Shown: piece by piece, positions 1-17,200 of the stretch | Position numbering within the stretch: the first letter of the stretch is position 1 | Layout: every line of letters starts with the position of its first letter | Source: Candidatus Heimdallarchaeota archaeon | GTDB taxonomy: Archaea; Asgardarchaeota; Wukongarchaeia; Wukongarchaeales; JBHIFL01 | DNA length: 18,635 bases | Direction: 5' to 3' | NCBI GenBank assembly: GCA_046761065.1 | Contig: JBHIFL010000078.1 | Location: forward strand, 1-18,635 | Notes under the pieces: model-generated | Database searches by the model: none | Seen by the model: only the letters and a program-made list of their open reading frames with translations | Told to the model about the DNA's origin: nothing | Program-made: the position numbers and the translations under genes

Positions 1-525
1 TAAATTTCCTAGATCTGTGGTTTCATCGATTTTCCCTAAAAAGTCCTATTCAATCCTTCTGATTTGGGCCTTTTCTTTCGATGACAATCCCCTTAAAGTA
101 AGAATACCCTTTCTTCGGTGCAGTTCCGGATACTGAAGCCATAATGACAGTTCACTTAGCTTAATATTAAGCGAGCAGGTTTGGACTAGAGAAGAAAATC
201 GTTTTTCAACATATTTGCCTCTCCCCCCTTGACTGTGTTGGTAATAAGAGGTTACCCCTAATAAGGCTTCATAGTAATGTTTCAAATCCTCAGAAATACT
301 TTCTAAGCCATCAAAAACTTTGGAAACTGGATCAAAGTTCTTAACTTTTGGGTTCAGAGAGAGTTCAACAAAATTGGCAAGAATATTCTTGTACGGCTCA
401 TACAATAGCTTATGTCCTAAATCAAGGGATTCTTTGTTTCTGAGACAAAGTATATTTCTTTTTCTCGAAGTTTTGCCTTTGTTTGACGGTTTTTTACGGT
501 TTTTCGCAGATGATGATGCTTTCAC
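1..525 (-). pseudogene. Putative restriction endonuclease-like gene interrupted by a nonsense codon; continues beyond the window edge
   Basis: ORF 46..525 stops at TAG (46-48), but the frame stays open to position 1 (RRIE*DFLGKIDETTDLGNL), consistent with TGG>TAG. It lies directly downstream of a methyltransferase remnant. The REase identity is inferred from context, and the true start is uncertain. Confidence 0.5.
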
Positions 526-695
526 CTCGAATCGCCCGGTTTCTTGCTCCTAGCAAGGGATTAAAAATCAATTTATCAAACTCAAACCCGGCTTCTTCGC
601 AAAAGGTCTTCGTCATCATAGTGGTAGGAATTTTTTCCCCGCCCACCGTACTATCGCCCATGATTGATAATGGCAAGTTTTCCTCCGGGGGGGTC
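494..695 (-). pseudogene. C-terminal remnant of an amino-DNA methyltransferase
   Basis: Reads PGGKLAII, then after a 4-bp duplication (TGATTGAT, 661-668) MGDSTVGGEKIPT...EEAGFEF...ESIIICEKP*. This resembles the (LK)PGG..I.GDS..G..IP...GF...E.I C-terminus of N4C/N6A MTases. No N-terminal part is recognisable. Confidence 0.65.
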
Positions 696-1005
696 CATAC
701 GACGTCCGGAAATCGTGCTCCCTGGAGATCTTCCTTACTCTGAGATTCCGGGGGATGCGTCCAAAACCAAGCGATGATTTGGGCGATGCCACGTGCAGTC
801 GATCTTTGAACAGGACAGAGTGGCTGTTATAAACCCCTACGTGCAGTAGTTGTGTGCACAACATCATGCCGCAAAGGCGCACCCAGACGATCCCGAATAC
901 AGCTCTTGCAAGAACCGGATGTCCGGACTTCAGCTACGCAATATACCAACGGAAGTTGGTGTTGGAATGATCTCCAGCCACTTTTGGATCAGGGAGGTCT
1001 TCAAG

Positions 1006-1031
1006 CGGTGAAAAGCTTCCCGGTGAAAAGC
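1006..1031. repeat. 11-bp direct repeat CGGTGAAAAGC x2 with a 4-bp spacer
   Basis: CGGTGAAAAGC-TTCC-CGGTGAAAAGC seen directly; function unknown. Confidence 0.8.
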
Positions 1032-1297
1032 AGCAAGAGTGCCTTTTGCACCCCTAAGATGGTTCAGATCTCGAAAGCGTCGCCATCCTCAGTGAAGCAT
1101 GCTAGCAGGTTGTGAAGGTCTATGAGATGCAAACCGCGGTGGATCTCGCCTCGCAAAAGAGACGCCCAAGCAGTGTGATCCAGCTTGCGCTTTGCAGGAT
1201 GCATCTCGGTCGCAGATCTACGAGTATACCGTTCTTTGAGATAGCTTAAATAAAACTTATTCGCAGCTTATTGACAAATATCCTGACCCCGTTCCCT

Positions 1298-1678
1298 TCA
1301 AATCCATTTGATCTGCAACCCCGGAATCAACTCATAATGAGGATCGTCTGAAACTACAATTTTCTCTTTGCTAAGTGCAGTCGCCCCAATTAGACTATCG
1401 GCTGTTGGTAATTTTTTGTGTATTCTTAATCGGGCTGCCGATAAGGCAATCTCTACCGACACCTCCACGATGGTATACGTTGATTGGAGAAGTCGTACTC
1501 GGTGTTCTGCAACTGCTTTCCCCTCCGTTTCCGCGAACATCTTGTACAATTCATGGAGGGTAATTACTGAAACAAATGAGCGAATTTTTGCAAGATCCTT
1601 TAGTTTCCTTAATTGCTGGGGGTCCTTTTGTCCAAATAACTCTACAAAGAAGCGGGTATCTAATGTGGGGAATGGCAT
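1298..1678 (-). CDS. vapC: PIN-domain ribonuclease toxin (VapC family)
   Basis: 126 aa with the PIN acidic pattern LDT...SVITLHEL...LPTADSLIGATA...VVSDDPHY; starts 4 bp after the antitoxin stop. Confidence 0.93.
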   Translation of the reverse strand: MPFPTLDTRFFVELFGQKDPQQLRKLKDLAKIRSFVSVITLHELYKMFAETEGKAVAEHRVRLLQSTYTIVEVSVEIALSAARLRIHKKLPTADSLIGATALSKEKIVVSDDPHYELIPGLQIKWI

Positions 1679-1682
1679 TTGT

Positions 1683-1904
1683 TCATACCCAGCTTTCCCG
1701 CTCTTTGTCCAGCTTTGCTTTTAATTCTTTCACCGAATACGTCCCAGTGCCCGCTTCCCGTTCGATCCAATCCGGAAGTGTTAATTTAAGGCCATCACCT
1801 ACATCTTCTATGAACAGGATGGTACCTTCTTTGATTCCATATTTCTTCCTTAGTTCCGCAGGAATGGTCATCTGCCCATTTCGGGTCACTTTTATCGTCA
1901 ACAT
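1683..1904 (-). CDS. vapB: AbrB/MazE/SpoVT-family antitoxin
   Basis: 73 aa with the AbrB signature KVTRNGQMTIPAELRKKYGIKEG, immediately upstream of the PIN toxin. Confidence 0.93.
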   Translation of the reverse strand: MLTIKVTRNGQMTIPAELRKKYGIKEGTILFIEDVGDGLKLTLPDWIEREAGTGTYSVKELKAKLDKERESWV

Positions 1905-2416
1905 TTTTTTTCTACTAAATATCAGATTTACAAAATTAAAAGATTACTAAGTCGTAGCCGAGAAGGCGATTCCATTTTTGGTGCCGTATAATATTTGGAC
2001 TAACAATGTACCAAAAATCGGGCAAGGTCTGCCATAAGCTTGGAAGATCTTGGTTAGTGTTTGTTCCTTCTTGCTCTGGGGGCACCTCCGCCGTCCTGCA
2101 GCATTGGTTGGCCCTGTCAAAACATGCTTTACACATCCATCAGAAGCAGTTTACAAACGGAACTCGCCCATCCGAAGCACAACAGAGATGAACGACAGAG
2201 TCGGATCTGAACCAAAATGATCGCCTTAAAAGACCTATTAGCCCATGGGCACGAGCCCAAAAGAGGAGGTAAGGGGGAGTTCAAGTATACAATCACACTA
2301 TATACCGGGTTGGCCAATTGTATGACAAAAAGTGCTTGGGTCTGAGGAGAACATGAAGACAGAAGGCTTTATTTTTATCAAAAAAAGCTATTTGAACATA
2401 TATAATTCTTTTTCAT

Positions 2417-2901
2417 ATGGATTAAAGTAAAATCGAACTGGAAGGCGAAAGCTTGCAGCTCAGGGAGTTATATCAGTCCTAAACCAGCATTACCCCGTTC
2501 TTGATCTCCTATGCCGAGACCTGGGAACTCTGGCTTAAACCGAATAAACCCTCTTCAGAACTGTTCGAATTGGCTATTGGGACGATCCTAGTACAAAATA
2601 CGAATTGGCGGAATGTGAACCGTGCTGTCGCGAATTTAAAACACGCCGGAGTCACTTCCTTTGACCAGTTACAACAGATAGATCCAGAGCGGCTTAAAGC
2701 ACTGATAAAACCTTCAGGGTTTCTTACCCAAAAAGCTAGCTCTCTTCGAGCGCTTAGTAATCTTCTCTTGACTCAACAAGCGCGAGGGACTCCACCCTCC
2801 CGACAACAATTGCTTGCAGAGGAATTGGAGAAGAAACCGCGGATTCTATCCTGGTGTATTGCTTCCACCGCCCCGTGGCCGTCAAGGTCTTTCAGACTTG
2901 A
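2417..2901 (+). pseudogene. Endonuclease III-related HhH-GPD DNA glycosylase, multiply disrupted
   Basis: The core FELAIGTILVQNTNWRNV...LIKPSGF..QKA is in ORF 2501..2929. The HhH motif GIGEETADSILVY(CFHRP) is in another frame from 2821 (frameshift at ~2819-2820) and is truncated at TGA 2899-2901. The N-terminus (ATG 2417, in-frame TAA 2423-2425, LRELYQ / LNQHYP) is split over other frames. Confidence 0.88.
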
Positions 2902-3474
2902 TACTGTTGTCAAGACTTGGTTTAACTGAAATAGCGTATACCAGAATAAGAAGTGATGGAAAGGGAAGAAATACTAACGAGATCTAGAAGCTAATTGCTA
3001 CTTCAAGAAGATTTGATCTATATTTGACCTCATTTGGTCATGAATATATCGCAAAGCTCAAAGCTGATAATAAAAAGAATGAGGGAAATCTCATAGACGA
3101 TGGTTTATTATGAAAGATTTTTAGAAAACAGATAGGAGAAAAAGAGAAGTTATGCTTTATCGAAAGAGCTTTATTCATTAAAATTAACTCTATTGGTTCA
3201 CTGGAAATAGAATGGCGTTCCACGTTAATTGAATTTCCTTTTAAAAAGTGAAATTTTGATTCAAAAGGCGCATTTTTGCCTCACCCATTCAAATGGTACA
3301 TCAGAGAGAGAATCCAGAAGAAAAAAACCCACTTCTGACCGGACTCGTGATTTCAGCAACTAAGGTCTCCTTTCCTGTAATACCTAAAAAATCACTATCT
3401 ACTTTAGCACCTAAATTATACAGTTCCGCCATTTTCCCTCCTATTTATTCCTCAGTTGAAAAGATGGAATTCTT

Positions 3475-4134
3475 TTAATGAAAGAACGAAACCAGAGCTA
3501 AACCCACAATCGATGCCAAGATAAGAAATAAAAGTGGAGTTACAAATTTATAGGTTATTCTAGTAAGCACATTAACATTTTCAGATAGTTGTCTTATAGA
3601 TTCCGACATTTCGGATAGGGTTTGAGTTTCAAGTGTTCGTAGATAATCTTTATCAACTCGGGGAATTAATCCCGCTTTTAGTTCAGTACCAGTTATAAAA
3701 CCTTCAGAGGCAGGAACAGTTAGACCGTAAAAATCAATGGTGCAAATTGGGCTTTGATAGTCCAATGTTATATTTCTCGGAGATGCATTATACATTCCTA
3801 AAATAAGATATCCGTCCCATCCAGGATCAATTTGTAATCCAGCCAATAAAATTAAACCTTTTCTGATATAATAAGACTTCATTCCGATGTGACAAACAAT
3901 ATTGTTTGAAAGGGTTATTTTTTCGAGTGTTGTCAATAAAGCAAACTCACCAGCCTTGATGGTGAAACTGGATCTCTTTTCCAAATCTATTTCATTTTCC
4001 ATGCCACTAATTAACGCTCTCTTACCAATCCTTAAATCATAACTTGCTGGTTGTAAACTTTGTTCATTGAATGGGTCAATAATTATTGTCTTCTTCTCCA
4101 TTTCATTACGGATTTCAACATCCGAAAGTAACAT
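3475..4134 (-). CDS. dcd: dCTP deaminase/dUTPase-fold protein with C-terminal coiled segment and transmembrane helix
   Basis: MLLSD.EI, SLQPASYDLRIG and IDPGWDG motifs of the Dcd/archaeal dUTPase family. The C-terminus FVTPLLFLILASIVGLALVSFF is a hydrophobic stretch of about 20 aa. Confidence 0.85.
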   Translation of the reverse strand: MLLSDVEIRNEMEKKTIIIDPFNEQSLQPASYDLRIGKRALISGMENEIDLEKRSSFTIKAGEFALLTTLEKITLSNNIVCHIGMKSYYIRKGLILLAGLQIDPGWDGYLILGMYNASPRNITLDYQSPICTIDFYGLTVPASEGFITGTELKAGLIPRVDKDYLRTLETQTLSEMSESIRQLSENVNVLTRITYKFVTPLLFLILASIVGLALVSFFH

Positions 4135-4569
4135 GATAGAATCAAATCCCTTGATCTTTTTTATTTTTTATTTTAGCTATCTCATTGTGAATAGCTTTAA
4201 TATAAATTAATAAGCAGCTTTACTTTATCACTTTTTCGTACAGGTTAGTATAAGTAAAACTCCATCGACATAGCTTGGTTTTCTTTTTTTAGTGTACTCT
4301 CTTACTGTGGTATTCTTTTTTCGAATGATCATCTAAGGAACAGTATTTCATTGTCTATATAACTCCTATTTCTCTCAACATTAAAGCTTCTGTGAGGCCT
4401 CCTGTTTTATATAATTGAGGTATGGATGTGCTAATATGCCACAAAATACACACAATGCTCGCAACGTTTGGGTTCTGTAATCCGCGAGTACCTTCAAATA
4501 TTCTATTTAACGCACCTAGTTGAAAAAAGGCCTTCTTCTCTCCCTTTTTTAAATGAAAAGTCAAAGATA

Positions 4570-5427
4570 TTACATATCTTCTAACTCAAATTGAAGGGAA
4601 TACTTCTTGAATTCAGCTAACTTAGTTCCTTTTGAATCAATTATTTCTGCTCCAAATAGTATCTTAGGATCGAAACTAGAAGCCACGATAATCCCCCTCA
4701 CTTCACCATCTATTTTCTTATTTACAGCGCCTTTATAACTCACTAATTGCCCGAGAGCATCATATTTGGCTTCTCCAGCTTTGAATTCGATAACAACATA
4801 TTTACCGTCTTTATCCTTGCAAATGAGGTCGGGTATTCCCGCCCCATCAGGCAAGGCTTCTTCAGGATCAACGACTTGAATGCCTTCCTCTATTTTTCCC
4901 GGATACGCACTAAAGTATTTATGAAGATCAGACTCTTTGCTGACTTCGATTTCTTCTTTCCTTTCTCTTATGGATTTTGACCAATTTAAAACCGTTTCTA
5001 GGTCGGATTCTTCCAATTCCCCAATGTTGAATCCTTGGATACCACACTTCCCCATCATATTAGAAAGTTCTCCAGAATCCACTTTTTCTCTAATTACATC
5101 TAGAGGCATACCGGTAGATAGTTTCTTTTTTTCACTTAGGTGCAGTATTGCCCTTTCGGGGACATCACTGAATTCTATCTTCTTTATTGTGAAAACGTGG
5201 CTCACCTGTTTTGGATAAGGATTAACATTTCCAGTGCAGTAAACAAGAACTTTATCTTCTTCTCGAATTTTTTCCCATAAATCTTTTTGATCCCTCCGAT
5301 CTTTCCAGTTATAATGTATGTATACTCCTTCTCCAATCGGTTCTTGCCACCATTGCTTTGCTTTTGTCTCTTTATGGAAACTTTCTCCACCACTCACCTG
5401 AATTAGAAAAACAGCCATATAATACAC
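4570..5427 (-). CDS. EVE/PUA-like domain fused to a NucS/Mrr-like PD-(D/E)XK endonuclease (likely modification-dependent restriction)
   Basis: The C-terminal domain has ESDL..Y, PDLICKDKDGKYVVIEFK, ALGQLVSY and VRGIIVA (NucS C-terminal type). The N-terminal aromatic domain has KIREEDKVLVY (EVE-like). The real start may be ATG at 5418. Confidence 0.8.
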   Translation of the reverse strand: MYYMAVFLIQVSGGESFHKETKAKQWWQEPIGEGVYIHYNWKDRRDQKDLWEKIREEDKVLVYCTGNVNPYPKQVSHVFTIKKIEFSDVPERAILHLSEKKKLSTGMPLDVIREKVDSGELSNMMGKCGIQGFNIGELEESDLETVLNWSKSIRERKEEIEVSKESDLHKYFSAYPGKIEEGIQVVDPEEALPDGAGIPDLICKDKDGKYVVIEFKAGEAKYDALGQLVSYKGAVNKKIDGEVRGIIVASSFDPKILFGAEIIDSKGTKLAEFKKYSLQFELEDM

Positions 5428-5450
5428 CGTGCAGTATATTCAACATTCAT

Positions 5451-5460
5451 TTAAATAAAA
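5451..5460 (-). promoter_or_regulatory. Putative archaeal TATA box for the EVE-nuclease gene
   Basis: TTTTATTTAA on the minus strand, about 30 bp upstream of the start codons at 5418/5427. Confidence 0.4.
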
Positions 5461-5673
5461 ATTTTACACCTCTCAAAGTTTTTACCTCTTAAAATCAGTT
5501 TAATCTTCTATTATTCTTTATAATTAAAATAAACTTTATGAATAAGTCGTTTTTAATCGAATTATTTATAATTAAAAGCATTTCGTTCAATTAGTGGGAT
5601 TTCTGATGGAAAAACTCTTCATACTATTTGTACTTAGAGTTCTATTGGTATAATAGAGTCAAGCATTGATGCG

Positions 5674-6087
5674 GTGAAACACCAGATCGCGGCATTTCCC
5701 TATCTTCGAGGCCCGAAGCTCTCGAACTTCTACCTTCGAGCGATGGGCGAAAAAGACTTGTTCAAACTGACGAACCTGAAGGAACTGGACATCCCTGTGG
5801 ATATTCAGGTCGCCCAGTTCATCATCTATACGGGATGCCTGGAGTTAGTCAGAGGCGTATTAACAGGCTGCGTCCAGGAACCGCCCATTCGATTACTCAT
5901 CGAAGATATCTGGAGAGTAACCGCGAGATCCTTTGGAATTGCTCCCTGGAAATTGGATGAACCAATCTGGACGGTTGGTTCCAAGCTATGTGCAAAGAAA
6001 AACTGTAGATATTGTCCCGTGCAGGAATTCTGCAATCAAAATTTCGATGCTATATTGAAAAATAACAAACTGGCTTGGACTAGGTAA
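5674..6087 (+). pseudogene. 5'-truncated HhH-GPD glycosylase-like gene with C-terminal 4Fe-4S cluster motif
   Basis: FPYLRGPKLSNFYLR (HhH-like), DIPVDIQV (GPD-loop Asp) and C-x4-C-x2-C-x5-C (CAKKNCRYCPVQEFC). An in-frame TAG at 5635-5637 and an abrupt change to AT-rich DNA upstream indicate a lost N-terminal half. Confidence 0.7.
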
Positions 6088-6125
6088 AAAAGCATGCATT
6101 GCTCCTCAATTATATCGATTGCTAA

Positions 6126-6167
6126 TTTATAAACCCAAAAAGCGAAATTTCAAAATAAATTTTGAAA
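6126..6167 (+). promoter_or_regulatory. TATA-like box followed by an operator-like inverted repeat
   Basis: TTTATAAA (6126-6133), then the perfect 9-bp inverted repeat TTTCAAAAT-AA-ATTTTGAAA (6148-6167), upstream of the DUF6884-like gene. The AT-rich context lowers significance. Confidence 0.35.
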
Positions 6168-6334
6168 GATTGTCCATTTGAGTCAATACTAGAAAAAAGA
6201 AAAATACTCTGTAGCACTTGGATAACAACACCTTAGATACTATCATCTAGGAAAAATAAATTGTTGATTCGCACTCTAATCACTTGACAAGAATTATATT
6301 AACATAATTAACCCTAAATATTACTTGGATAGAA

Positions 6335-6790
6335 ATGAATACTCTCGTCGTTGTTCCCTGTGGAATATACAAGATTTGGAAGAAATATTCAAATGCAGGG
6401 CCTACGCCGGCCAAGAATGTATATAAAGGAGCGCCATTCAAAGTATACAAAGAATATGCCGAGACCTTCAGCGACCAATGGGTTATCCTCTCAGCAAAAT
6501 ATGGCTTCATCAACCCCGATTTCATTATTCCAGAAGATTACAACGTCTCATTTACCAATCCCTCTACTAACCCGATTTCTTTAAAAGAATTGATAATTCA
6601 AGTTAATACAAGGCTTAACAAATTCAATTGTGTAATAGCCTTAGGAGGAAAAACTTACACTGAGATTACCAGAAAAGCCTTTGAAGAAACAGGAATACCA
6701 ATAAAAACTCCTACAATAGGCCTTACCATAGACTTTGCCATGGGTAAGGTAAAAAAGGCCACTAGGGAAGGTAGGCCTCTTGATTGCTGA
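6335..6790 (+). CDS. DUF6884-like protein (YaaA-related fold)
   Basis: VVVPCG..K, PAKNVYKG..F, WVILSAKYGFI.P..II..YN and ALGGKTY motifs, characteristic of DUF6884. Confidence 0.82.
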   Translation: MNTLVVVPCGIYKIWKKYSNAGPTPAKNVYKGAPFKVYKEYAETFSDQWVILSAKYGFINPDFIIPEDYNVSFTNPSTNPISLKELIIQVNTRLNKFNCVIALGGKTYTEITRKAFEETGIPIKTPTIGLTIDFAMGKVKKATREGRPLDC

Positions 6791-6923
6791 TACTAAAGTA
6801 GAATCTTTTGACGCTGAAAAAATAATTCGCTATAGTAACTGTGATCCTATGTACTAAAGTATTGAGGGTATTCAACCTACTAAAAATATAGAAGATGAAA
6901 AGAAGTTTTATAAGGAGGATTGC

Positions 6924-7781
6924 TTGTTGTATTTGCCTTCTACTAAAATCCCAATCGATGTACGGGCATGTCTTCACGGTAAAGATGAGTATTCGACCGT
7001 TATGCATATAGATTTCGAAAGTAATGTTTTACTGGAATTTATTGAACCCAATGAATCTACTTTCTGCCAAGGTGTAAAGGGAGGAGTGCTTATCGGACTT
7101 AAACCGGAAAGAGCAGAAATTATACAAAGTATTATGGTTGAACTTGAAGACGCCCTCTATGGGATTAAAAAAACACGTAAACAGTCATATTTTCCTCTAA
7201 GTTCTGAAAAAGTCCCTATCAATGTTCATTCCTATATCAATAGGAGAGGAAAGAGAACTTTCAATTACTTTCTGTTCTTTAAATCGCCAATTCTTGGTGA
7301 AATTGTAAGACCCGGTCAAAAAACATTTTCGGCGGGTAAAAACGATGGAATTTTTGTTGCAATGAAGAAGAGTATGATAGGACGCGCTGAACAATTTTTG
7401 AATAACATCAAAGACTTAATTGACACATCCGAATTTGCAAATGCAACTGACAATGTTGAACATATACTAAAGATCCATGGAGGTTCAGCTAGTTTCACAG
7501 AAATCTTGGATGAAACTCCTAGGAAATTATTCGAGAATATTGAAGATCCAGAGGATTTTCTGATATGCGTGTTACACTCAGATCCTCGATTCAAAATGAT
7601 TGGGGAGGATGGTTGGTGTTTAAAAGATCTGCCAAATTCATTGGTTCTTGAATACTATATTGATCGATATATCTCGACAAAAGATTATTCTACAGCAATG
7701 ACAATAATAGAACGGATTCCAGACGAGAACAAATCAGATAGAGTAAAAAAGTACGCAAAACTTTGTGAATGGAATCTTTAA
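6924..7781 (+). CDS. Hypothetical DNA-binding protein: tandem-duplicated N-terminal domain + winged helix (HARE-HTH-like) + conserved helical C-terminal tail
   Basis: TTG start preceded by AGGAGG. It has an internal repeat with an 88-aa offset and VLHSDPRFKMIGEDGWCL, which resembles the L..D.RF.....W.L wing of HARE-HTH/RNAP delta domains. Its tail is shared with ORF 8915..9814. Confidence 0.8.
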   Translation: MLYLPSTKIPIDVRACLHGKDEYSTVMHIDFESNVLLEFIEPNESTFCQGVKGGVLIGLKPERAEIIQSIMVELEDALYGIKKTRKQSYFPLSSEKVPINVHSYINRRGKRTFNYFLFFKSPILGEIVRPGQKTFSAGKNDGIFVAMKKSMIGRAEQFLNNIKDLIDTSEFANATDNVEHILKIHGGSASFTEILDETPRKLFENIEDPEDFLICVLHSDPRFKMIGEDGWCLKDLPNSLVLEYYIDRYISTKDYSTAMTIIERIPDENKSDRVKKYAKLCEWNL

Positions 7782-7926
7782 GTACGTTTATTCATATAGA
7801 TTGCGATAATAGGTAAAAGAAGAAATGAAATATGATTCTATTATGCTTTCAGTTTTTTAAATTCTATTTTTAGATTAATTAATGGTTAGTTATTTCATTT
7901 GTTGGCTCAATTATTACTATTAAAAG

Positions 7927-8817
7927 CTAACATGTTTCCAATTCCTTTTTGAAATCAAGAATATATTCATAAGCGCTATTCAATGCAATAAAATTGGAGG
8001 GATAGCCAAAAATACCCATTCTTTGGATTAGGTTTGATTTATCCCAAATTATAATATTTTTTAAAGTAAAGCCGATTCTCTCCAATGATTTAATCAAAGG
8101 AATATGAATGAAGTAGGGAACAACGTCACGAATGTTGATTACACATCGTTTTTCTGGTTTGAGAACAGAATAAATTTCTTTGAAGATCTTGGTTATTTCT
8201 TCAATGAAAGTTGGTGAGTCCATATTTCCCAAGTCTCTTGGGTTGTCACTATATTTTTCAGTAATACCCAGTCTCTTATCTTGCCTTACATTTGTATGTT
8301 TACTTTTGTTGGTCCGCACTGTATCTAGGATATTTGCATATGGTGGACTTGTGACGAATAAATCAATACTTTCATCAGGAATATATTTTCGTAGATTTAT
8401 AGCATCTTCACTAATCACTTCCAATTTTGGTATCATCCCATACAATTTTGTGTCTTTTAATCTGTTTTTTGCAATATTACAATATTTTTGATTCAAATCA
8501 ATACCAATACCATGTCTTTCTGTGTCATTGCAAGCGACCAGCGTTGTTCCAACGCCATTAAAACAATCTAGAACTACTTCGCCTCTATGAGTGAATAGTT
8601 CTATTATTCTCCTAACTAATGCAATTGGGAAAACCGCTGGATGAATTTTCTTATCACGTATATCGCGTTTTTCGTAGTCAAATCGCCAAACGCCAATCAT
8701 ATTCCTTACCCATTCCTTGCCGCTCAAACAATTGAGCCTATTTGGGGTACATTCGCAAATTCTCTGAGTTTTGCCAAACCACTCTATTCTTTTCATTTCA
8801 ACCAACTTTTTGGCCAA
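7927..8817 (-). CDS. Site-specific amino-DNA methyltransferase (N4C likely, SPPY type)
   Basis: HPAVFP, SAM-binding LDCFNGVGTT, GIGIDLN, catalytic TSPPY, VLKP, IIWDK and YEYILDF motifs. Confidence 0.93.
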   Translation of the reverse strand: MAKKLVEMKRIEWFGKTQRICECTPNRLNCLSGKEWVRNMIGVWRFDYEKRDIRDKKIHPAVFPIALVRRIIELFTHRGEVVLDCFNGVGTTLVACNDTERHGIGIDLNQKYCNIAKNRLKDTKLYGMIPKLEVISEDAINLRKYIPDESIDLFVTSPPYANILDTVRTNKSKHTNVRQDKRLGITEKYSDNPRDLGNMDSPTFIEEITKIFKEIYSVLKPEKRCVINIRDVVPYFIHIPLIKSLERIGFTLKNIIIWDKSNLIQRMGIFGYPSNFIALNSAYEYILDFKKELETC

Positions 8818-8914
8818 AATTAGAATAAATTTGTGGATACACGGCTTTTAGACTACCATAAACTTTTACCTATTTTTTAGTCGTCAAGGAGTTGCATTAA
8901 ATAATATCGAAATT

Positions 8915-9814
8915 TTACGATTCCCATTTACATAATCTTGCATATCTCTTCATTTCTATAGACTGTTCATTTTTGGGAACGTCATTAATGACATTTAAAG
9001 CGTCTTTGTACCTTCCTTGCTCATAGTAGTATTTTATTGCAGTTATTGGAGATGGTTCTACATTTAAATCTCCATAGTATTTAAACCAGTCATCTTCAGT
9101 CATGAAATTAATTATGATTGCTTTTTCTGCTAGGATTTTATCTATTAAGGCGGTTTTTTCTTCATTCAACCGCAAGTTCCCGTTTTCATTAACAATAACT
9201 AAATTAGTATTCACAAAAAAGGATCGGGCATAGCTCGAAAGGCGATGAAGTTTTTTATAGAATGTATTTGAATAAGTCAGCATAGATTTCTTTTCTTCCC
9301 CTATTTTTCTATATTTTTGGATTTTTTTCGATGTCAAATCAATTTCTGTCTCATCTCTTAGTCGCATCACGAATAATGCCATCTCATTATGCGTAACATA
9401 TGCTACTTTTCGCAGTATCTTTATGAAGGCTCGAAACGGGTGAATTTTTAATCCTTTTATTATTTTTTGGGAAGGATTTGGGAACTGCCATTTTAAAAGT
9501 TGATCACGAACAATTTCGTTTTCTTTGTCATAATTGTCAAGAACTTTACGTCCAGCCGGCGAAAAGATTATAATTCCTCTTTGTGATGGTTGGGTATAAA
9601 CCAAACCCAAAAATTTACATAAAGCAAAGATTGTTTCAATTCCATGTTTAGAAAGTCGTTTATTGGTGATTTTTCTCAAAAGTAATTCATTTGATAATTC
9701 ATTCTTTGTATTATCATTCCATAATTTTCCATCAAATTTGTATATTGTGTGTAGGTAGTTGTGGAGCATATATGGCGACCTTTTCGGAACAAGCCAATAT
9801 GACCGCATATTCAC
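8915..9814 (-). CDS. AlwI/type IIS-like DNA-recognition domain protein lacking an evident nuclease domain
   Basis: LGLVY...FSPAG, DQLLKWQFPNP, KIHPFR.F..IL and T..E.ALF resemble the N-terminal recognition part of AlwI-family enzymes. It is only 299 aa with no recognisable PD-(D/E)XK or HNH motif. The probable start is ATG 9808. Confidence 0.65.
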   Translation of the reverse strand: MNMRSYWLVPKRSPYMLHNYLHTIYKFDGKLWNDNTKNELSNELLLRKITNKRLSKHGIETIFALCKFLGLVYTQPSQRGIIIFSPAGRKVLDNYDKENEIVRDQLLKWQFPNPSQKIIKGLKIHPFRAFIKILRKVAYVTHNEMALFVMRLRDETEIDLTSKKIQKYRKIGEEKKSMLTYSNTFYKKLHRLSSYARSFFVNTNLVIVNENGNLRLNEEKTALIDKILAEKAIIINFMTEDDWFKYYGDLNVEPSPITAIKYYYEQGRYKDALNVINDVPKNEQSIEMKRYARLCKWES

Positions 9815-10015
9815 TTTTTTGCTGAAGCAAACTTATTTTTTTATGCAAATGACAAGGCAAATTACTTGTTATTCAATACTTTTGTGATTACTAGATCGAT
9901 CATCTCCTCTTTTTCTTTACAAAAAACATTGAAATTCAATAGAACACTATTAAATGGAAATAAAACCTAAATAAATGACAAATGGTATAGATAATGTATT
10001 AATAAAATCAATTAT

Positions 10016-11500
10016 CTATGATTCTATTCTGTAAGCCAATCTCTTTGCTTTAAACTCTCCAGGTGCCATGTGATGCAGTTGATCGATTATTCGTTGCCGG
10101 TATTCTACGGCAAGATCCATGCAGGTTCTTAGATCCATTTCGCTATAGAGACCATTTGGGGAAAGTAATTTTAACATTCCACTTCCTATTTTCTTAATGC
10201 TCTTCTCATCACGAATATCTGCGTTATCCAACTGAACTGCTTTACTGATATATCCGTTAAAGTCTATCTTACGGAGTTCATGCAAGATTTCTGCAAAATA
10301 ATCGCTTACAAACCCATAATTTTTTGCAAGATGTTTTTCGCTTTGTTGAATTCTTGGTAACTCCCACCCTGGTATAAACCCATTAAATCTATCAATAAAA
10401 GCAGTTTCACGCATTTCAGTAGGAAAAACCTCAAATAACGGTTCAATACTTGGGTATCCGTCCTTTACAGGAATATTTCCAACCATTATAAGAGATGTAT
10501 CACTTTGAATTTGTTTAGTTCCCCGGTCAAAATTTCCACTTTCCATATAGTCTTTCAATTTTCCAATGGTCTCAAAGGAGTATTTCATCTGGATTGTGCT
10601 AACTTCATCTAAGACTATGCAGTCTTTAATAGCTAATAACCCTAGACGTTGAGTACTTAGATTTACAAAAAGCGTAGCTGGAGTAATTTGGCCGCCTGAG
10701 ATGATCCTAGAATGATATGACACATTTCGGAAAAGAAAGGTTTTTCCAGTGCCTTTTGGACCTAACTCAACTATATTCACATTAGATTCGACTAGGGGGA
10801 TCAGGCGTGACAGTAGTACAAGTTTCGTCCTATCACTATAATTTCTCGGATTCAAACCGACACTGTTTATCAAAACATCAATCCATTCTTTTGTTGAAAA
10901 ACTCTCTCGTCCTTCTAGAAAGACATTAAAGTCAAGTTTTGATATCTGAAAGGGCGTAAATTCGGTTAGTAAGACCGGCGTATCACTATCTGGAACATAA
11001 ACTAGGTTTCCAACTCCCCACATACCATCTATAAGGAGGTTCTCATGTTGATAAAGCAAAGATTCAACGATTCTTGCATTTCGGATATCTAAACAGGGGA
11101 TCCAAACTTTTTGAATTCCACGATTGATATCAGTCTCAACTTTAAATTCATCCAACAACTTGTATGAACCAAATCTCATTAAAATGGTCTTTATTCGATC
11201 TTTTTCTTTCCGTTCGGGGTAAAACTTGTGAACAAAATCACTTAGTTTTGCCAGATTTTCTTTGGTGACACCATCCTTACAAAATTTAATAAGGAGATAC
11301 TCTGAGACAAATCTTGGCAGTCTCTTTATTTCCTGTAATTGAGATAATTTCTTATCTACCACAAATTCTGGAAAAACTTTCAGTAGTTTTTCATTCAAAC
11401 TGTCTTCAGAGATCATGTCTTCTATTAAAGTATCAATAGAACGTTTTACAGGTTCATCTTTCTTTATATTTTCAGACATTTTACCACTTGCCTGGTTCAT
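10016..11500 (-). CDS. brxL: BREX BrxL-like AAA+/MCM-like ATPase, without C-terminal Lon protease domain
   Basis: WIDVLINSVG.NP, RLIPLVESN.N.VELGPKGTGKT (Walker A), IVLDEV (Walker B), LKDYMESGNFDRG, AFIDRF.GFIPGWE, RDEKSI and AVEYRQRI..QL are BrxL signatures. The probable start is ATG 11479. Confidence 0.92.
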   Translation of the reverse strand: MNQASGKMSENIKKDEPVKRSIDTLIEDMISEDSLNEKLLKVFPEFVVDKKLSQLQEIKRLPRFVSEYLLIKFCKDGVTKENLAKLSDFVHKFYPERKEKDRIKTILMRFGSYKLLDEFKVETDINRGIQKVWIPCLDIRNARIVESLLYQHENLLIDGMWGVGNLVYVPDSDTPVLLTEFTPFQISKLDFNVFLEGRESFSTKEWIDVLINSVGLNPRNYSDRTKLVLLSRLIPLVESNVNIVELGPKGTGKTFLFRNVSYHSRIISGGQITPATLFVNLSTQRLGLLAIKDCIVLDEVSTIQMKYSFETIGKLKDYMESGNFDRGTKQIQSDTSLIMVGNIPVKDGYPSIEPLFEVFPTEMRETAFIDRFNGFIPGWELPRIQQSEKHLAKNYGFVSDYFAEILHELRKIDFNGYISKAVQLDNADIRDEKSIKKIGSGMLKLLSPNGLYSEMDLRTCMDLAVEYRQRIIDQLHHMAPGEFKAKRLAYRIES

Positions 11501-11543
11501 TTAGGAGCTTAATCATTAATTAGAATATCAAATTCATTCCTTT

Positions 11544-14222
11544 TTAAATGAATGAATCCAAAATCTCATCAACACTCCTTTTAACCTTTCTAGGATCTTC
11601 TATCACTTTTGCCGTACAATATGAACTTGTTTTTTTCATTTGAGAAAGGATGCTATATTCAAAATCAAAAATCAACTTGATTCTTCCTAATTCTTGCGGT
11701 TGAAACCTCATTTTAACTTCTATTTTCTCTTTCGAACCAATTACAGGGATGTTTGTTGTGCTCTGTCCAATCAACTCAATTCGAATGTTTTCAACCGCAC
11801 TATTGTTCAAATTTTGAATTTTTATCGGTATATATGTCGATTTATTGATAATGTATTGTTTTCCTTGAACTTGAGAAAGGTCCACTGATAATGGGATTAT
11901 TTTTAACTCTTTTCGAGGCAATAGAATGCTAAAGGGAACTAATACCTCTTGAAGTGATAGACCCCCATGAGAGTAACAATAGTGTGACCTGAGTCGGAAG
12001 AGTGGGTCAACAGTCATTTTATCACTATGGCGAAAACTTAGGTTACCAATAGGAAACGCAACGTTTCGGCTATTATTATCCATGATCCCAAAATCCTTAA
12101 CATTGATTTCAATAACCTCTCGGTCAGTCAGGTGTTCTCCCTCATCTAATGCAATACATCGATCGTGAATGAATCCTTTATACCTTCCAACTTTCATTTC
12201 ACGTGTAGTTCTCACAAAACCGTGATCCGATAGTATGAATAAAATACTCGACTCTTCTTTCTCGATTTCCTTTATTAAGGAATCAATGAGCGTTTCGTAG
12301 GTTGTTAGAAACAGTCGCCGGAGGTTCCCCTCAGAACCATTATATTGGTGAATTAAGTTATCAATATTGTTGAAAATTAATATTTTGACTTGATTTGGGC
12401 TAAAAAGCACTTTATCAACAGCATCTATCTTTACATCCGAATCAGACTGTGAACAGAAGTCTATTTGGGATGAAGGAATGCCAAGACATTCGCTTATTAA
12501 TCTAACCTCGTTTTTTTTCTTCTGGGGCTTCCCCTCATTTGGAAAGATAAGAGTGTCTCTTGGAAGCCTACCTGAAAAAATGCTAGATCGGGAGTAGATT
12601 GTAGTAGTTGGTAACATTGCCAAAGCTGGTATTGTCTTTATTTCAAATTTTTGCTCAAATTTTTCTTTAAATAGCTCCCAAATATCCCATCTCATACAAT
12701 CAAAGATAACTATGAAGATCTTTCGATATCTTGCCTTTTCCGGCATGAATATCTTTTTGATAAAATCTTTTGCTAGAATCAGTTCTTTTGTATCTCTAAT
12801 CCAAATAGGGTAGTTTTTTGTAAGAAACTTTGCAAATTTTTGATTATATTCCCAGATTAAACTTGTATATATTTCCTTCAATTTATTACGGTTGTCTCGT
12901 GTCAGATATCGAAATGATCTATTTGATTCTACCTCTGCATAGGCGATTTGGAAAGGAACAATTTTGCTTAAGTAGATCTTTGTCCACATTTCAACAGAAT
13001 TTAACTTTTGAATATCTTCAGCTTCTAATTCATTTGATAATTTTAGAAAATTGGTAATATGTTGAATTAATATAATTTCTTCTTGGAATTGATGCGAAAA
13101 TAGGTGGTTCTGAAGACTGTTCTGAATTATTGTGATCTCTTCTCTTAAGTAAGAGCTTGGATATTTAACAAGATAGTTTGAAACCCTCTTTACTGTTTTT
13201 TCAAAATTTATCTTTGTATATTGGTCTTTTTCTATCAACTCTGAAAGAGCTTCGAGTTCATTTGTACCATCAATTTTCGAGACCCGCCTGAATTGCATCT
13301 TAGCTGCTTGCGAATTGTCCAAACGAGTTTCTAATTGCGTTAGTTGATCTTGACAGAGCTTTCGAAGCGACCTATCTGAGAGAAGATTATCACACAATCG
13401 CCCGAAATCTTCGAATTTTAGCGATTCAACATCAAATTGCGTGAAAAGGGAAGGAAAAATACTCCGAATGTATGTCTTAGGGTTTTTTCCAAAATCCATG
13501 ATAATTTTCGAAAGCCAGAGTAGTTCTGGAAAGCTTTGATGATTGAAATCGCTTTCAAGCACTTTTTCGAATATTTGAGCAAGATTTCGATCTGTAGCTA
13601 CCAATTTTGATGTAAGTCGTTCATACAGGGTCGGTGATTTTGTTTGTATGGATTTCGCTCTGTTTTCTGGATATAGGAAAAGAAACGCTTCTTTTGGTGT
13701 TAAATCATTTAATAAATTAGTTTTTGCTAGAGCTGAGATAATAATATCGTAATATTTGGGTTGTGTAACTGGCTCATTGGCATTCCCTCTATATTCGATT
13801 AATTGTTCGAAATTGTCCCAAAAAACCCTCCCTTCTAAAATATTAATTATTCGGTGCCATTTTAGTTTAGTAAAGGATTCAAGCAAATTTTTAGGTGTCA
13901 CTGTGACTTCGTTTCTACCACATCTTGAAACAATATCTTGAATCTTCGAGTTATCCTGCCGTGACACAACGCAGATTTTTCTTTCTAATGCTTCGTTTAA
14001 GTCATACATTAGTCTATATTTTTCGATTTCAGCTCGAAATATTAAATCATTTTCATAGAAGATAATGATATATTCTTCTTTCAGTTGCTTCAACCAATTT
14101 TTATCAAGGATAAGTCCGTTTTGATCGTTTATTAAGAGGAAGGGGGATCGTCTTAGCGGAATAGACATTTTTATAAATTTTTGGAAGACTCCACTAGCTA
14201 TTTCATTTTCCATCCTGGTCAC
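11544..14222 (-). CDS. pglZ: BREX PglZ alkaline-phosphatase-superfamily protein
   Basis: IFDCMRWD, AMLPTTT.YSR..IFSG, IDNLIH, ILSDHGF and SHGGLSLQEVLVP motifs, with a beta-rich Ig-like C-terminus. The probable start is ATG 14213 after a GGTGA SD, overlapping the brxC stop. Confidence 0.93.
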   Translation of the reverse strand: MTRMENEIASGVFQKFIKMSIPLRRSPFLLINDQNGLILDKNWLKQLKEEYIIIFYENDLIFRAEIEKYRLMYDLNEALERKICVVSRQDNSKIQDIVSRCGRNEVTVTPKNLLESFTKLKWHRIINILEGRVFWDNFEQLIEYRGNANEPVTQPKYYDIIISALAKTNLLNDLTPKEAFLFLYPENRAKSIQTKSPTLYERLTSKLVATDRNLAQIFEKVLESDFNHQSFPELLWLSKIIMDFGKNPKTYIRSIFPSLFTQFDVESLKFEDFGRLCDNLLSDRSLRKLCQDQLTQLETRLDNSQAAKMQFRRVSKIDGTNELEALSELIEKDQYTKINFEKTVKRVSNYLVKYPSSYLREEITIIQNSLQNHLFSHQFQEEIILIQHITNFLKLSNELEAEDIQKLNSVEMWTKIYLSKIVPFQIAYAEVESNRSFRYLTRDNRNKLKEIYTSLIWEYNQKFAKFLTKNYPIWIRDTKELILAKDFIKKIFMPEKARYRKIFIVIFDCMRWDIWELFKEKFEQKFEIKTIPALAMLPTTTIYSRSSIFSGRLPRDTLIFPNEGKPQKKKNEVRLISECLGIPSSQIDFCSQSDSDVKIDAVDKVLFSPNQVKILIFNNIDNLIHQYNGSEGNLRRLFLTTYETLIDSLIKEIEKEESSILFILSDHGFVRTTREMKVGRYKGFIHDRCIALDEGEHLTDREVIEINVKDFGIMDNNSRNVAFPIGNLSFRHSDKMTVDPLFRLRSHYCYSHGGLSLQEVLVPFSILLPRKELKIIPLSVDLSQVQGKQYIINKSTYIPIKIQNLNNSAVENIRIELIGQSTTNIPVIGSKEKIEVKMRFQPQELGRIKLIFDFEYSILSQMKKTSSYCTAKVIEDPRKVKRSVDEILDSFI

Positions 14223-17200
14223 CGACGATTTGAATTAAAGTGTCTTGATCTGGCTTGTCTGGTGTGTTTAACCAGGAATTCACTTGCTCGATGACAGTTG
14301 AAGGTGGAAGAGTTCGTCCTTCTAAAACATTTATCAACTTCCTCAATGATCGTTTCTTTACCTTTATTCCCTCTAGCGCCTTATTGATTTCATCAATCAC
14401 TTCATGAGTAACTAACATAGAAAGTTGGTTGATAAGCTTCTCACAACTTTCAGTCGAATCGAGGTTAAACAATGATCGTATTTGATCACCTATCTTGGAA
14501 TTTGTCTGTTCTATATATGAAATTATTTTCTCCTTGTTTGTTTTCAAATTTAATGCGTTTAGATACTCCTTGCATCCCGAGCAGATACGCTCATGTATTT
14601 CCTCCACCGACAAGTTCTGAACAACATCACCTAATTTGAACCCACAATCGCATATTGGTTTTTTTGTGAGTATTTTTATAACATCTCGCTCACAAACCCC
14701 CCGCGCGATTTCATCCAAACCTAAAGAAGCTATATCGTGTTCAACTTTAATCTTCTCTATCCCAGACAATTTTGTTAACACAACATATCTTGGTGCCTTT
14801 CTCACGCTTTTTAATATCGTTTCACGCTTTTCTGCTTGCTTAGCATCGTAGTGTTCGCTAGTGTAAACGTTCTTATAAGCTGCTTGAAAATTATTGAAAG
14901 TTTTTTCAAGTTTCACTAGGCGATTTCTGAATATAATTCCTTCAAGATCTTTGAGAATTGAAATTGTTCCTGTTTTTTGTGAGTATAATTCCTCATAGGC
15001 TTCTGGAACCTCTGCTGGAACAAGATATCGATGAATTTTTGAAAGCTTATCCATCCCAGAATCAACAAATTCAAGTATCTTGTCATAATCGGCCTTTAAT
15101 AATTCTAGATTTTCCTCAAATTGCTCATTGAACCCCAGAAAAGATTCGAGACCTTCTCTTGATGGTATTTCCTCGTTAATACTCTCTAAAACTGAATGAA
15201 ACTTTTCAATGATGCGCTTTACTTGAATTAGATTCACGTCAGAGTATCCAAGAGAGTCCTGCATATTCTTAAACTCAACTATAACACGGTCACTTTGTTG
15301 CAAGTTCTCAGACTTGAAATTACAGAATGACGTCCATAGTTCGTTTTGGTTTATAAGATTATAACTTCTTGGGCTCTCTCCAAGTAACACTTTTGACAGA
15401 TCATTGACGTCAGACCATTTCTCTCGATTGATTAATTGGCCTTTTTCCAGCGTAGTCAGGTTTTTTGAAATTGGCGTTCCCAAATTGCTAATATTAGTGT
15501 GTGTATAGATCTTTTTGCCCTTTTTACCAATAATACTGCCTGTCTTTATCAAACTAGCAACTAATAGTTCGAACACACTGTCAATTATTCCGAACTCGGA
15601 TTTTCTAATTCTCCAATAGATCTCTTCATAGTTTCTCTCACCAGTCTCGGGCATAAAGTTCATTATCGCCTCTATTGCTTTGGACCCCTCAAGTTTCAGT
15701 TTCCATTCAGTCCCGATCCTCTCGACTATTCCCATGGGTTCAGCATAATTCTCAAGTGCGGATTTTAACCGAGGAACAGGATCCTTGACAAAGCCTTGTT
15801 TAATAAATTCATTAAAAATTTTATTAGCGGGTCCTCTAGTTCTTAAAAGGCGGCCGAAGACTGGATGTTTTGGATATTTTCGATTCAGAGGAACTTCCAC
15901 GATCTTGGAAAGCAAAATATCAAATGGTTGAGCTGAATATTCTCTAAGTTGTATGTCCAGATCACCTTCAGTTGTATAAACTCTTCCATCGTAATAGAGC
16001 TTTTTGAGATGAGAAGCAAGACTTCGCCGTCCCTCTCCCCCCCAGGAATTCAATTTCTCAAATTTTATAGCGCCTTCCGCTGTTTTGTCGTTTTTGTAAT
16101 CGTCCTGTACTTTTAAAATTGCAGTATAGGTCTTTAAAGCCTCTAACAAGGATTTTTTGATCCCAATCATCTCAATTTTTTCAACGACGTCAGATATTTC
16201 TAATGGCAACCAGAAAATGATTCCAGATTCTTCCTCTTCATCTAAAAGTGAGTTTATGTGTCTTTTTTGTTCCTCAACCTTAAAAGGCAGTCCAATTATC
16301 AGCTGAAAATCTTTTTCTGAGTTTTTTAACAATTCTCGTGCATCTGTCATCGTATCTTCAGTGATATCTGAAACATTTTGAATAAACAAACCACCTACTC
16401 GGTTTGTCTTGTTCCATTGCACCTCAATCTCATTGGGAAACCCATATTCGAAATCTTTTAAAATATCAACTAGAGACAGGAGAGGAGTAAACAACCGTCT
16501 ATCATCATCTGCTAGTCCTTCAGCATACCTCTCGACCTCTGGTCCCGGATCGCCACGAATCTCCACATCCAAGAAGTAAATCTCTTCGAATTTTTCCTTT
16601 CCACGCCTTATTCCGATGTATTGTCCTATCGATGCCAATTCACGCAGGAGACCATTAACATAATCATAATTTTGTTTACTATCAAAGGGACCGTACATTA
16701 CCATGTTTGTCAGTTCTAGTACATTCTTCTCTAAATTAGCTATCTTGAGAATTGCGAGAATTTTTATTAGTTTAAGCCCATATCGTCGGTCATCATCAAG
16801 TTCCAGCTTTGGAATAACGTTTTTCTCAAAATATTGATATGCTAAATATTTATCAGAGAACCGATCTTCAATTCGAGTCTCAAAATCATCAAATACCGCA
16901 TCAGGAGTTAAAAGATTGATGAAATCTTCATTTAAAATACCCGGAACTCCTCTTCGGGGATTTCCTTTCACTTCATCATGAATAAACTCCACAAGACTTC
17001 TAGTTCGAGAGAAGTACTGCATAACTTGTTCTAAACAGTCCAGTGTTGACGGATGAACTGGATAGATTTTCAAAAATTTGTCTTTGGGAAGTGTGTGTCT
17101 TAGATCCGGAAATTTTTGCATTAAGATTTCGTAGGCTTCTTCAATTTTGTACGGTTTCTCTTTGACTACCAGTCGTTCGCCGATTAGTTCTTCAATGTGT

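Follow-up and report, generated by a model that had tools for sequence, protein, structure and literature searches.

The 18,635-nt stretch of DNA analysed here (the window: contig JBHIFL010000078.1 of assembly GCA_046761065.1, Candidatus Heimdallarchaeota archaeon, positions 1 to 18,635) carries the core of a bacteriophage exclusion (BREX) system and, next to it, two proteins, A and B, which end in a shared 39-residue tail. This tail is very probably the three-helix linker that joins the DNA-recognition domain to the nuclease in AlwI/BspD6I-NucS type II endonucleases. We favour the explanation that A and B are two non-cutting DNA readers which keep the orphaned linker as a contact module, association of the carriers themselves being the first candidate for such a contact; for this account as a whole we estimate a probability of roughly 0.4. 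A faces the run of BREX, B and methylase genes tail-to-tail, with the methylase gene lying between A and B:

6924–7781, forward strand: open reading frame (ORF) A, 285 residues, consisting of a doubled archaeal domain, a HARE-HTH-like winged helix and the shared tail
6924–7427, forward strand: tandem unnamed beta-rich archaeal domain of A, copies at residues 1–80 and 88–168 (E = 3e-10 between the copies)
7437–7631, forward strand: HARE-HTH/RNA-polymerase-delta-like winged helix of A, residues 172–236, a weak assignment
7641–7781, forward strand: tail of A, helices at residues 240–251, 255–263 and 272–284; 39-residue match at 7662–7778
7927–8817, reverse strand: N4/N6 DNA methyltransferase, FxGxG before SPPY (PDLC03363, E = 3e-81)
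8915–9049, reverse strand: tail of B, helices at residues 256–265, 269–278 and 286–298; 39-residue match at 9034–8918
9053–9814, reverse strand: residues 1–254 of B, an AlwI/Nt.BspD6I/BpuJI-type DNA-recognition domain without a nuclease

An earlier sequence-only reading of this DNA had described the tails as aligning without gaps at 12 identities, equally far from the stop, in two otherwise unrelated proteins, and this description is accurate. Both ORFs (A, 6924–7781, forward strand; B, 8915–9814, reverse strand) and both tails are present; the ungapped alignment has 12/39 identities and a BLOSUM62 score of 70, each protein ends two residues past the tail Trp, and outside the tails A and B are unrelated in sequence. 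Compared with the last 39 residues of 2,617 six-frame ORFs of at least 200 residues from the genome, neither tail finds another match that scores above 14, and among 300,000 randomly paired ORF ends a score of 70 was reached 12 times. BLASTP of whole A against whole B gives E = 8e-7, the signal coming from the tail. The DNA encoding the two tails is identical at 51 of 120 positions, and by codon position 1, 2 and 3 the identity is 14, 24 and 10 of 39, third positions being saturated; the likeness is therefore old and has been kept at the protein level, and does not result from a recent copy. In the models, each tail forms three helices resembling tetratricopeptide repeat (TPR) units, and the conserved positions hold mostly hydrophobic, core-type residues.

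The origin of the tail is best seen from B. The protein matches PF09491 (RE_AlwI) with E = 6e-14, and a profile built from its relatives matches N.BspD6I with E = 1e-33. Its structural model (predicted local distance difference test, pLDDT, 95.8; predicted template modelling score, pTM, 0.92) includes the tail, confidently modelled as part of B, and over residues 1–254 resembles N.BspD6I (2ewf) with Z = 28.6 and the BpuJI recognition domain (5hlt) with Z = 18.9; B has the winged-helix recognition domain of the FokI/BpuJI/BspD6I fold. No C-terminal nuclease domain is present in the same chain, either here or in a second strain. Among 1.8 billion proteins searched, 205 relatives of B were retrieved, mostly of 440–620 residues. 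The alignment of B with relatives of 440–540 residues runs uninterrupted through the tail, and 48 of the 149 relatives examined have, behind a WFxYYG motif, a helical linker and then a NucS-type PD-(D/E)XK nuclease. B is in register with this linker and has its stop one residue past the conserved Glu with which the nuclease domain starts. Since B runs through the linker and stops at the start of the nuclease, the tail is what was left in front of the nuclease rather than a nuclease replacement. The four best ungapped matches to the B tail are linkers of this AlwI-NucS family, likewise in register, and Atlas models of full endonucleases align with B across residues 1–299. When a linker profile made without A or B was run against 19,197 ORFs, B ranked second (E = 0.28) and A third (E = 1.3), both in register. 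The score between the A and B tails (70) is about double the best score of B with any relative (36), which places the common ancestor of the two tails closer than any sampled member of the family. Thus, the linker of AlwI-NucS restriction enzymes is a simpler source of the tail than the new family of docking tags that had been proposed from sequence alone.

Members of this family, such as the AlwI-N + NucS protein WP_081876348.1 of Sphingobium plasmid pTK7, are found in a different setting: intact relatives adjoin an N4/N6 methylase and no BREX genes, one such pair residing on a 9.6-kb plasmid. A weak match to the B-family profile was also found in L025 (119 residues, E = 0.001). The AlwI-type recognition domain occurs joined to varied partners, namely, PLD (N-terminal), HNH, NOV_C, beta-sandwich domains and NucS (P0037, P0016, P0085, P0008), and the same genome holds another methylase gene paired with an AlwI-like gene, the pair being truncated by a contig end (C198:586-2435).

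Comparison with the second strain, which comes from another study and is 95% identical, shows that B has its stop at the same codon and that brxL, B and the methylase follow each other as they do here. Between the strains B has 16 synonymous and 16 non-synonymous changes on 182 and 709 sites, respectively (ratio of non-synonymous to synonymous rates, dN/dS, 0.24; p = 2e-4), which means that B is under purifying selection and is not decaying. These data bear on the view that A and B are pseudogenes, left by two restriction enzymes and now decaying, or that their tails are generic TPR units which resemble each other by chance. Such a view agrees with the insertion sequence (IS) and the gene fragments in the island, as well as with the weak TPR_19 matches of the tails (E = 0.013 and 0.11), but we regard it as very improbable: decay is largely refuted for B, the 98–145 nt behind the stops of A and B can accommodate neither a nuclease remnant nor read-through or frameshift into one, the tail score stands at 70 against 14 although the genome holds many other helical proteins, and generic TPR matches span mostly helices 1 and 2.

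No third carrier of the tail was found with either of two profiles (both tails; tails with linkers) in about 400 genomes of the phylum, nor in metagenome or viral contigs, plasmids, phages or 16 brxL loci; the tail profile is short (40–50 residues, two sequences) and its sensitivity is limited accordingly. Its weak matches are internal repeats of generic TPR proteins, mostly helices 1 and 2, and a SWIM-finger protein. This is the outcome that the sequence-only reading had itself named as counting against its idea of swappable tail-bearing subunits beside brxC, pglZ and brxL, an idea which the searches do not bear out. The null results make a wider tail family less likely; the arrangement appears to be specific to one lineage, where it is seen in two strains, and not to be a general part of BREX.

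A is a chimera of a doubled archaeal domain, a weak HARE-HTH-like helix and a linker homologous to that of B. Contigs of the second strain cover positions 6774–7791, i.e. A. Besides A itself, no full-length relatives were detected at E ≤ 1e-3, and word-index searches with A and with B each matched only the query. The repeat has no match in Pfam, NCBIfam or the PDB; judged by eye, it might have a PC4/PUR-like fold. Its relatives stand alone in four genomes of the phylum (G001, G006, G284 and G297) and on a Haladaptatus plasmid, and are fused to GNAT in another (G007), none of them in a recognisable defence context. Members of this archaeal family are about 140 residues long, start with MTGP and have a GGIFxGxK motif and a helix at the end (L066-L069, L060:1051-1911, L062:8965-9201), the Haladaptatus member being one unit alone. 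The winged helix matches TIGR04567 (E = 0.022) and Pfam HARE-HTH (E = 0.18) below the cut-offs, with Atlas features of 0.75–0.76 and family matches agreeing in 10 of 10 cases. A single-sequence fold of A is confident in the tail only and fails outside it (pLDDT 42). HARE-HTH domains fused to endonucleases have been proposed to be readers of modified DNA (PMC10853773, PMC11037411); A ends after the linker, without a restriction endonuclease (REase) domain. The proposal that both proteins are non-catalytic DNA-binding modules is well supported for B and weakly supported for A.

Taken together, these results show that B is an AlwI-NucS-type enzyme that has lost its nuclease and was retained by selection. 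They suggest a scenario in which B would bind a specific DNA sequence without cutting it, and A would bind DNA via its winged helix and might read a modification there. The linker, no longer attached to a nuclease, may have been kept as a TPR-like protein-contact module; because A has no AlwI body against which it could pack, the linker on A was presumably retained as a protein contact. The most economical partner for the tail would be the other carrier (an A·B pair) or a second copy of the same protein, and an A·B pair could act as a two-part non-cutting reader guarding or regulating this one defence island, the arrangement having been inserted behind a type-4-like BREX operon.

Several points weigh against this scenario. 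Binding of a partner by the tail is as yet a reasonable inference. The evidence for selection comes from B. The tail of A alone matches the family linker weakly (E = 1.3), and its assignment goes via B. The methylase may not be the original partner of B. In addition, the genes of B and the methylase lie behind brxL and share its strand, a layout that is kept in the second strain and is equally consistent with a link to BREX. Finally, the conservation of mostly hydrophobic residues in the tail could reflect the fold alone. The linker might then be a structural remnant that caps or stabilises the recognition domain of B and has no docking role, and A might have gained its copy by an old local rearrangement and kept it for folding or contact with the DNA backbone. 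The model of B, which confidently places the tail within the protein (pTM 0.92), the failure to find a third carrier, the largely core-type conserved positions and the tails facing each other across the methylase are in line with this. We nevertheless find it rather doubtful, given that A lacks an AlwI body which the tail could cap and still its protein pattern outlasted the saturation of third positions, and that no inverted repeat is left at the tails in the DNA. An invertible, shufflon-like segment between the facing tails was also considered and rejected, as there are no matching inverted repeats at the DNA level and no joints in three contig sets.

The methylase gene itself has a dN/dS of 0.095 over 133 codons. 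It has a 65% identical paralogue at C47:33184-34119, among housekeeping genes and without a visible partner, and, where both motifs are readable, its motif order is opposite to that of the methylases beside intact AlwI-NucS relatives. These two observations are the reason to suspect that B and the methylase are perhaps not an original pair.

If the tail is a leftover in front of a nuclease, it could alternatively serve as a socket for a nuclease supplied in trans, A and B being alternative aiming subunits of a split endonuclease. One candidate for this nuclease is encoded in the window and the other on contig C15 (L054:1471-1833), where a stand-alone 117-residue NucS nuclease domain was noticed:

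4570–5427, reverse strand: NucS-type nuclease protein with an intact-looking D..ExK motif and an unassigned N-terminal domain (PF01939, E = 6e-12)

Both A and B end at the point at which the fused family continues into the nuclease, and the gene at 4570–5427, located 1.5 kb from A, reaches 87 bits with the profile of AlwI-NucS nucleases, compared to 45 and 40 bits for the other two NucS proteins of the genome. However, this score is at the floor of the range of family members (86–169 bits), and the protein has an N-terminal domain of its own of about 160 residues, EVE-like by eye only. The sole apparently split relative, L073, was rejected as a natural precedent, because its separately called NucS ORF results from a frameshift inside linker helix 3 (L073:1500-1610). 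We therefore consider a split endonuclease improbable.

Other genes of the island were noted in passing. A cluster of genes for base modification or repair comprises an HhH-GPD-like ORF (2501–2929), an AGOG glycosylase-like fragment (5674–6087) and a DUF6884 YaaA/DpdC-like gene (6335–6790). The window further contains a dCTP-deaminase-family protein with a hydrophobic C-terminus (3475–4134), of which C166 carries another copy at 37% identity, and an AbrB-like + PIN-like gene pair, VapBC toxin-antitoxin-like by eye (1298–1904).

The BREX core occupies the remainder of the window:

10016–11500, reverse strand: BrxL, short, without the Lon-like C-terminus (TIGR02688, above cut-off)
11544–14222, reverse strand: PglZ, divergent (PF08665; under all NCBIfam type cut-offs)
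14203–18144, reverse strand: BrxC ATPase (DUF6079), divergent
18141–18635, reverse strand: BrxB/BrxF-like small P-loop protein (iSTAND), cut by the window end

Identical DNA in other assemblies shows, upstream of the P-loop gene, a 320-residue BrxA-like gene and then an IS6-family transposase. The product of the former matches BrxA models weakly (E = 0.002) and also matches the first gene of L057, but not SspB/DUF4007. The operon order is thus BrxA-like, iSTAND, BrxC, PglZ and short BrxL, with the IS6-family element bounding the upstream side. This core, which has the BrxC + PglZ + BrxL set of type-4 BREX, is type-4-like and not type 3. Type 3 is defined by PglXI and BrxHII (PMC12839542). A BrxXI/PglXI methylase was not found in the locus, the one Eco57I-type match of the genome sitting in an unrelated context, and no helicase gene that could be BrxHII is present from the IS to the opposite end of the island, a genome-wide search for it not having been made. 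The best PglZ model is that of type 3, far below its cut-off (84 versus 250). The nearest BrxL relatives, 56–66% identical, are in loci of type-4 layout (with a 3′-phosphoadenosine-5′-phosphosulfate (PAPS) reductase or DUF4007), the BrxC and PglZ of which are only 21–27% identical to those here. A PAPS reductase is adjacent in three of the seven nearest brxL loci and was not seen in the other four, while it is present in eight of nine more distant loci. In the present genome, which is 91% complete, neither a PAPS reductase (BrxP/SspD) nor PglX was found, the sole PF01507 match being GMP synthase-like; the IS and the contig end border the operon. Among the related loci, L041, L042 and L057 are archaeal type-4-like cores with no PAPS reductase or methylase alongside within the fetched DNA, L038 has its PAPS reductase in divergent orientation, and L058:87-17774 (GCA_030589605.1; G069:C258) carries two brxC-pglZ-brxL operons, brxL-to-brxL and 96 nt apart, with no modifier gene seen.

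This context allows the docking idea of the sequence-only reading to be considered in a revised form: in a type-4-like core without a phosphorothioation module, the methylase would mark self, and A and B would dock on BrxC, PglZ or BrxL by their tails. The position of B and the methylase behind brxL in both strains and the failure to find BrxP or PglX are compatible with it, and B shares its fold with BrxA and SspB (Z = 7.3 and 6.3). Because BrxA itself resembles the recognition domains of BpuJI and FokI (PMC9240713; also PMC12839542), a link to BREX stays alive. Yet neither the tail nor an A-like gene nor a homologue of this methylase occurs in any of the 16 related brxL loci, and four of the seven nearest loci also lack a modifier beside the core, so that its absence needs no replacement; moreover, with the IS and contig end just upstream in an incomplete genome, BrxP may be unassembled. 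The operon has a BrxA-like gene of its own, and B, whose gene starts about 200 nt behind brxL, is set off by an AT-rich spacer. Nor was a sequence match found for the likeness to the C-terminus of PglXI that had been suggested for the tail: the BREX models of PADLOC and NCBIfam match neither A nor B nor the tails. Docking on BREX thus appears quite improbable. In a broader version, which we also consider improbable, a type-4-like core without its phosphorothioation module would have taken on three additions, namely, B as a type II enzyme deprived of its cutter, A as a chimeric reader, and the small methylase; the former linker would dock either reader on the BREX machine or on a nuclease common to both, and recognition, marking and cutting would be swappable parts.

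The non-cutting readers that we favour would be of interest because B appears to be a restriction enzyme turned into a selected DNA reader, with binding predicted from its sequence and model, and its linker has been reused on an unrelated protein. This would provide a small concrete case for how modules like BrxA could arise from type IIS enzymes, and should the tail dock on BREX or a shared nuclease, it would offer a natural handle for re-aiming such systems. The general weight is modest, as the arrangement belongs to one lineage, in two strains, of an uncultured archaeon, which probably stems from a hydrothermal-vent metagenome.

Among known systems, B is closest to the AlwI/Nt.BspD6I/BpuJI type IIS enzymes and the uncharacterised AlwI-N + NucS subfamily, with which it shares the recognition fold, sequence, WFxYYG motif, three-helix linker and a neighbouring N4/N6 methylase. 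It differs from AlwI-NucS enzymes in having no nuclease, in the opposite motif order of the methylase and in that the linker is also present on a second, unrelated protein. Like BrxA/SspB (PMC9240713), B is a stand-alone FokI/BpuJI-like DNA-binding module beside BREX genes (Z = 7.3 to 7zge), but it is far nearer to true endonucleases (Z = 28.6), has the linker and accompanies an operon with its own BrxA-like gene. A resembles the HARE-HTH + REase fusions found beside Dnd and BREX (PMC10853773, PMC12839542) in that a HARE-HTH-like helix, weakly assigned, is followed by an endonuclease linker; unlike them, it has no REase and carries an extra unnamed doubled domain. The operon has in common with type-3 BREX the BrxF-like iSTAND and the BrxA-like gene, but its locus has BrxL in place and neither BrxXI nor BrxHII, and the tail is unmatched by PglXI models. 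With type-4 (phosphorothioation) BREX (PMC12839542) it shares the order of the gene in the BrxA/DUF4007 position, iSTAND, BrxC, PglZ and short BrxL, whereas no PAPS reductase was found in the locus or genome, and the core is followed here by B and the small methylase.

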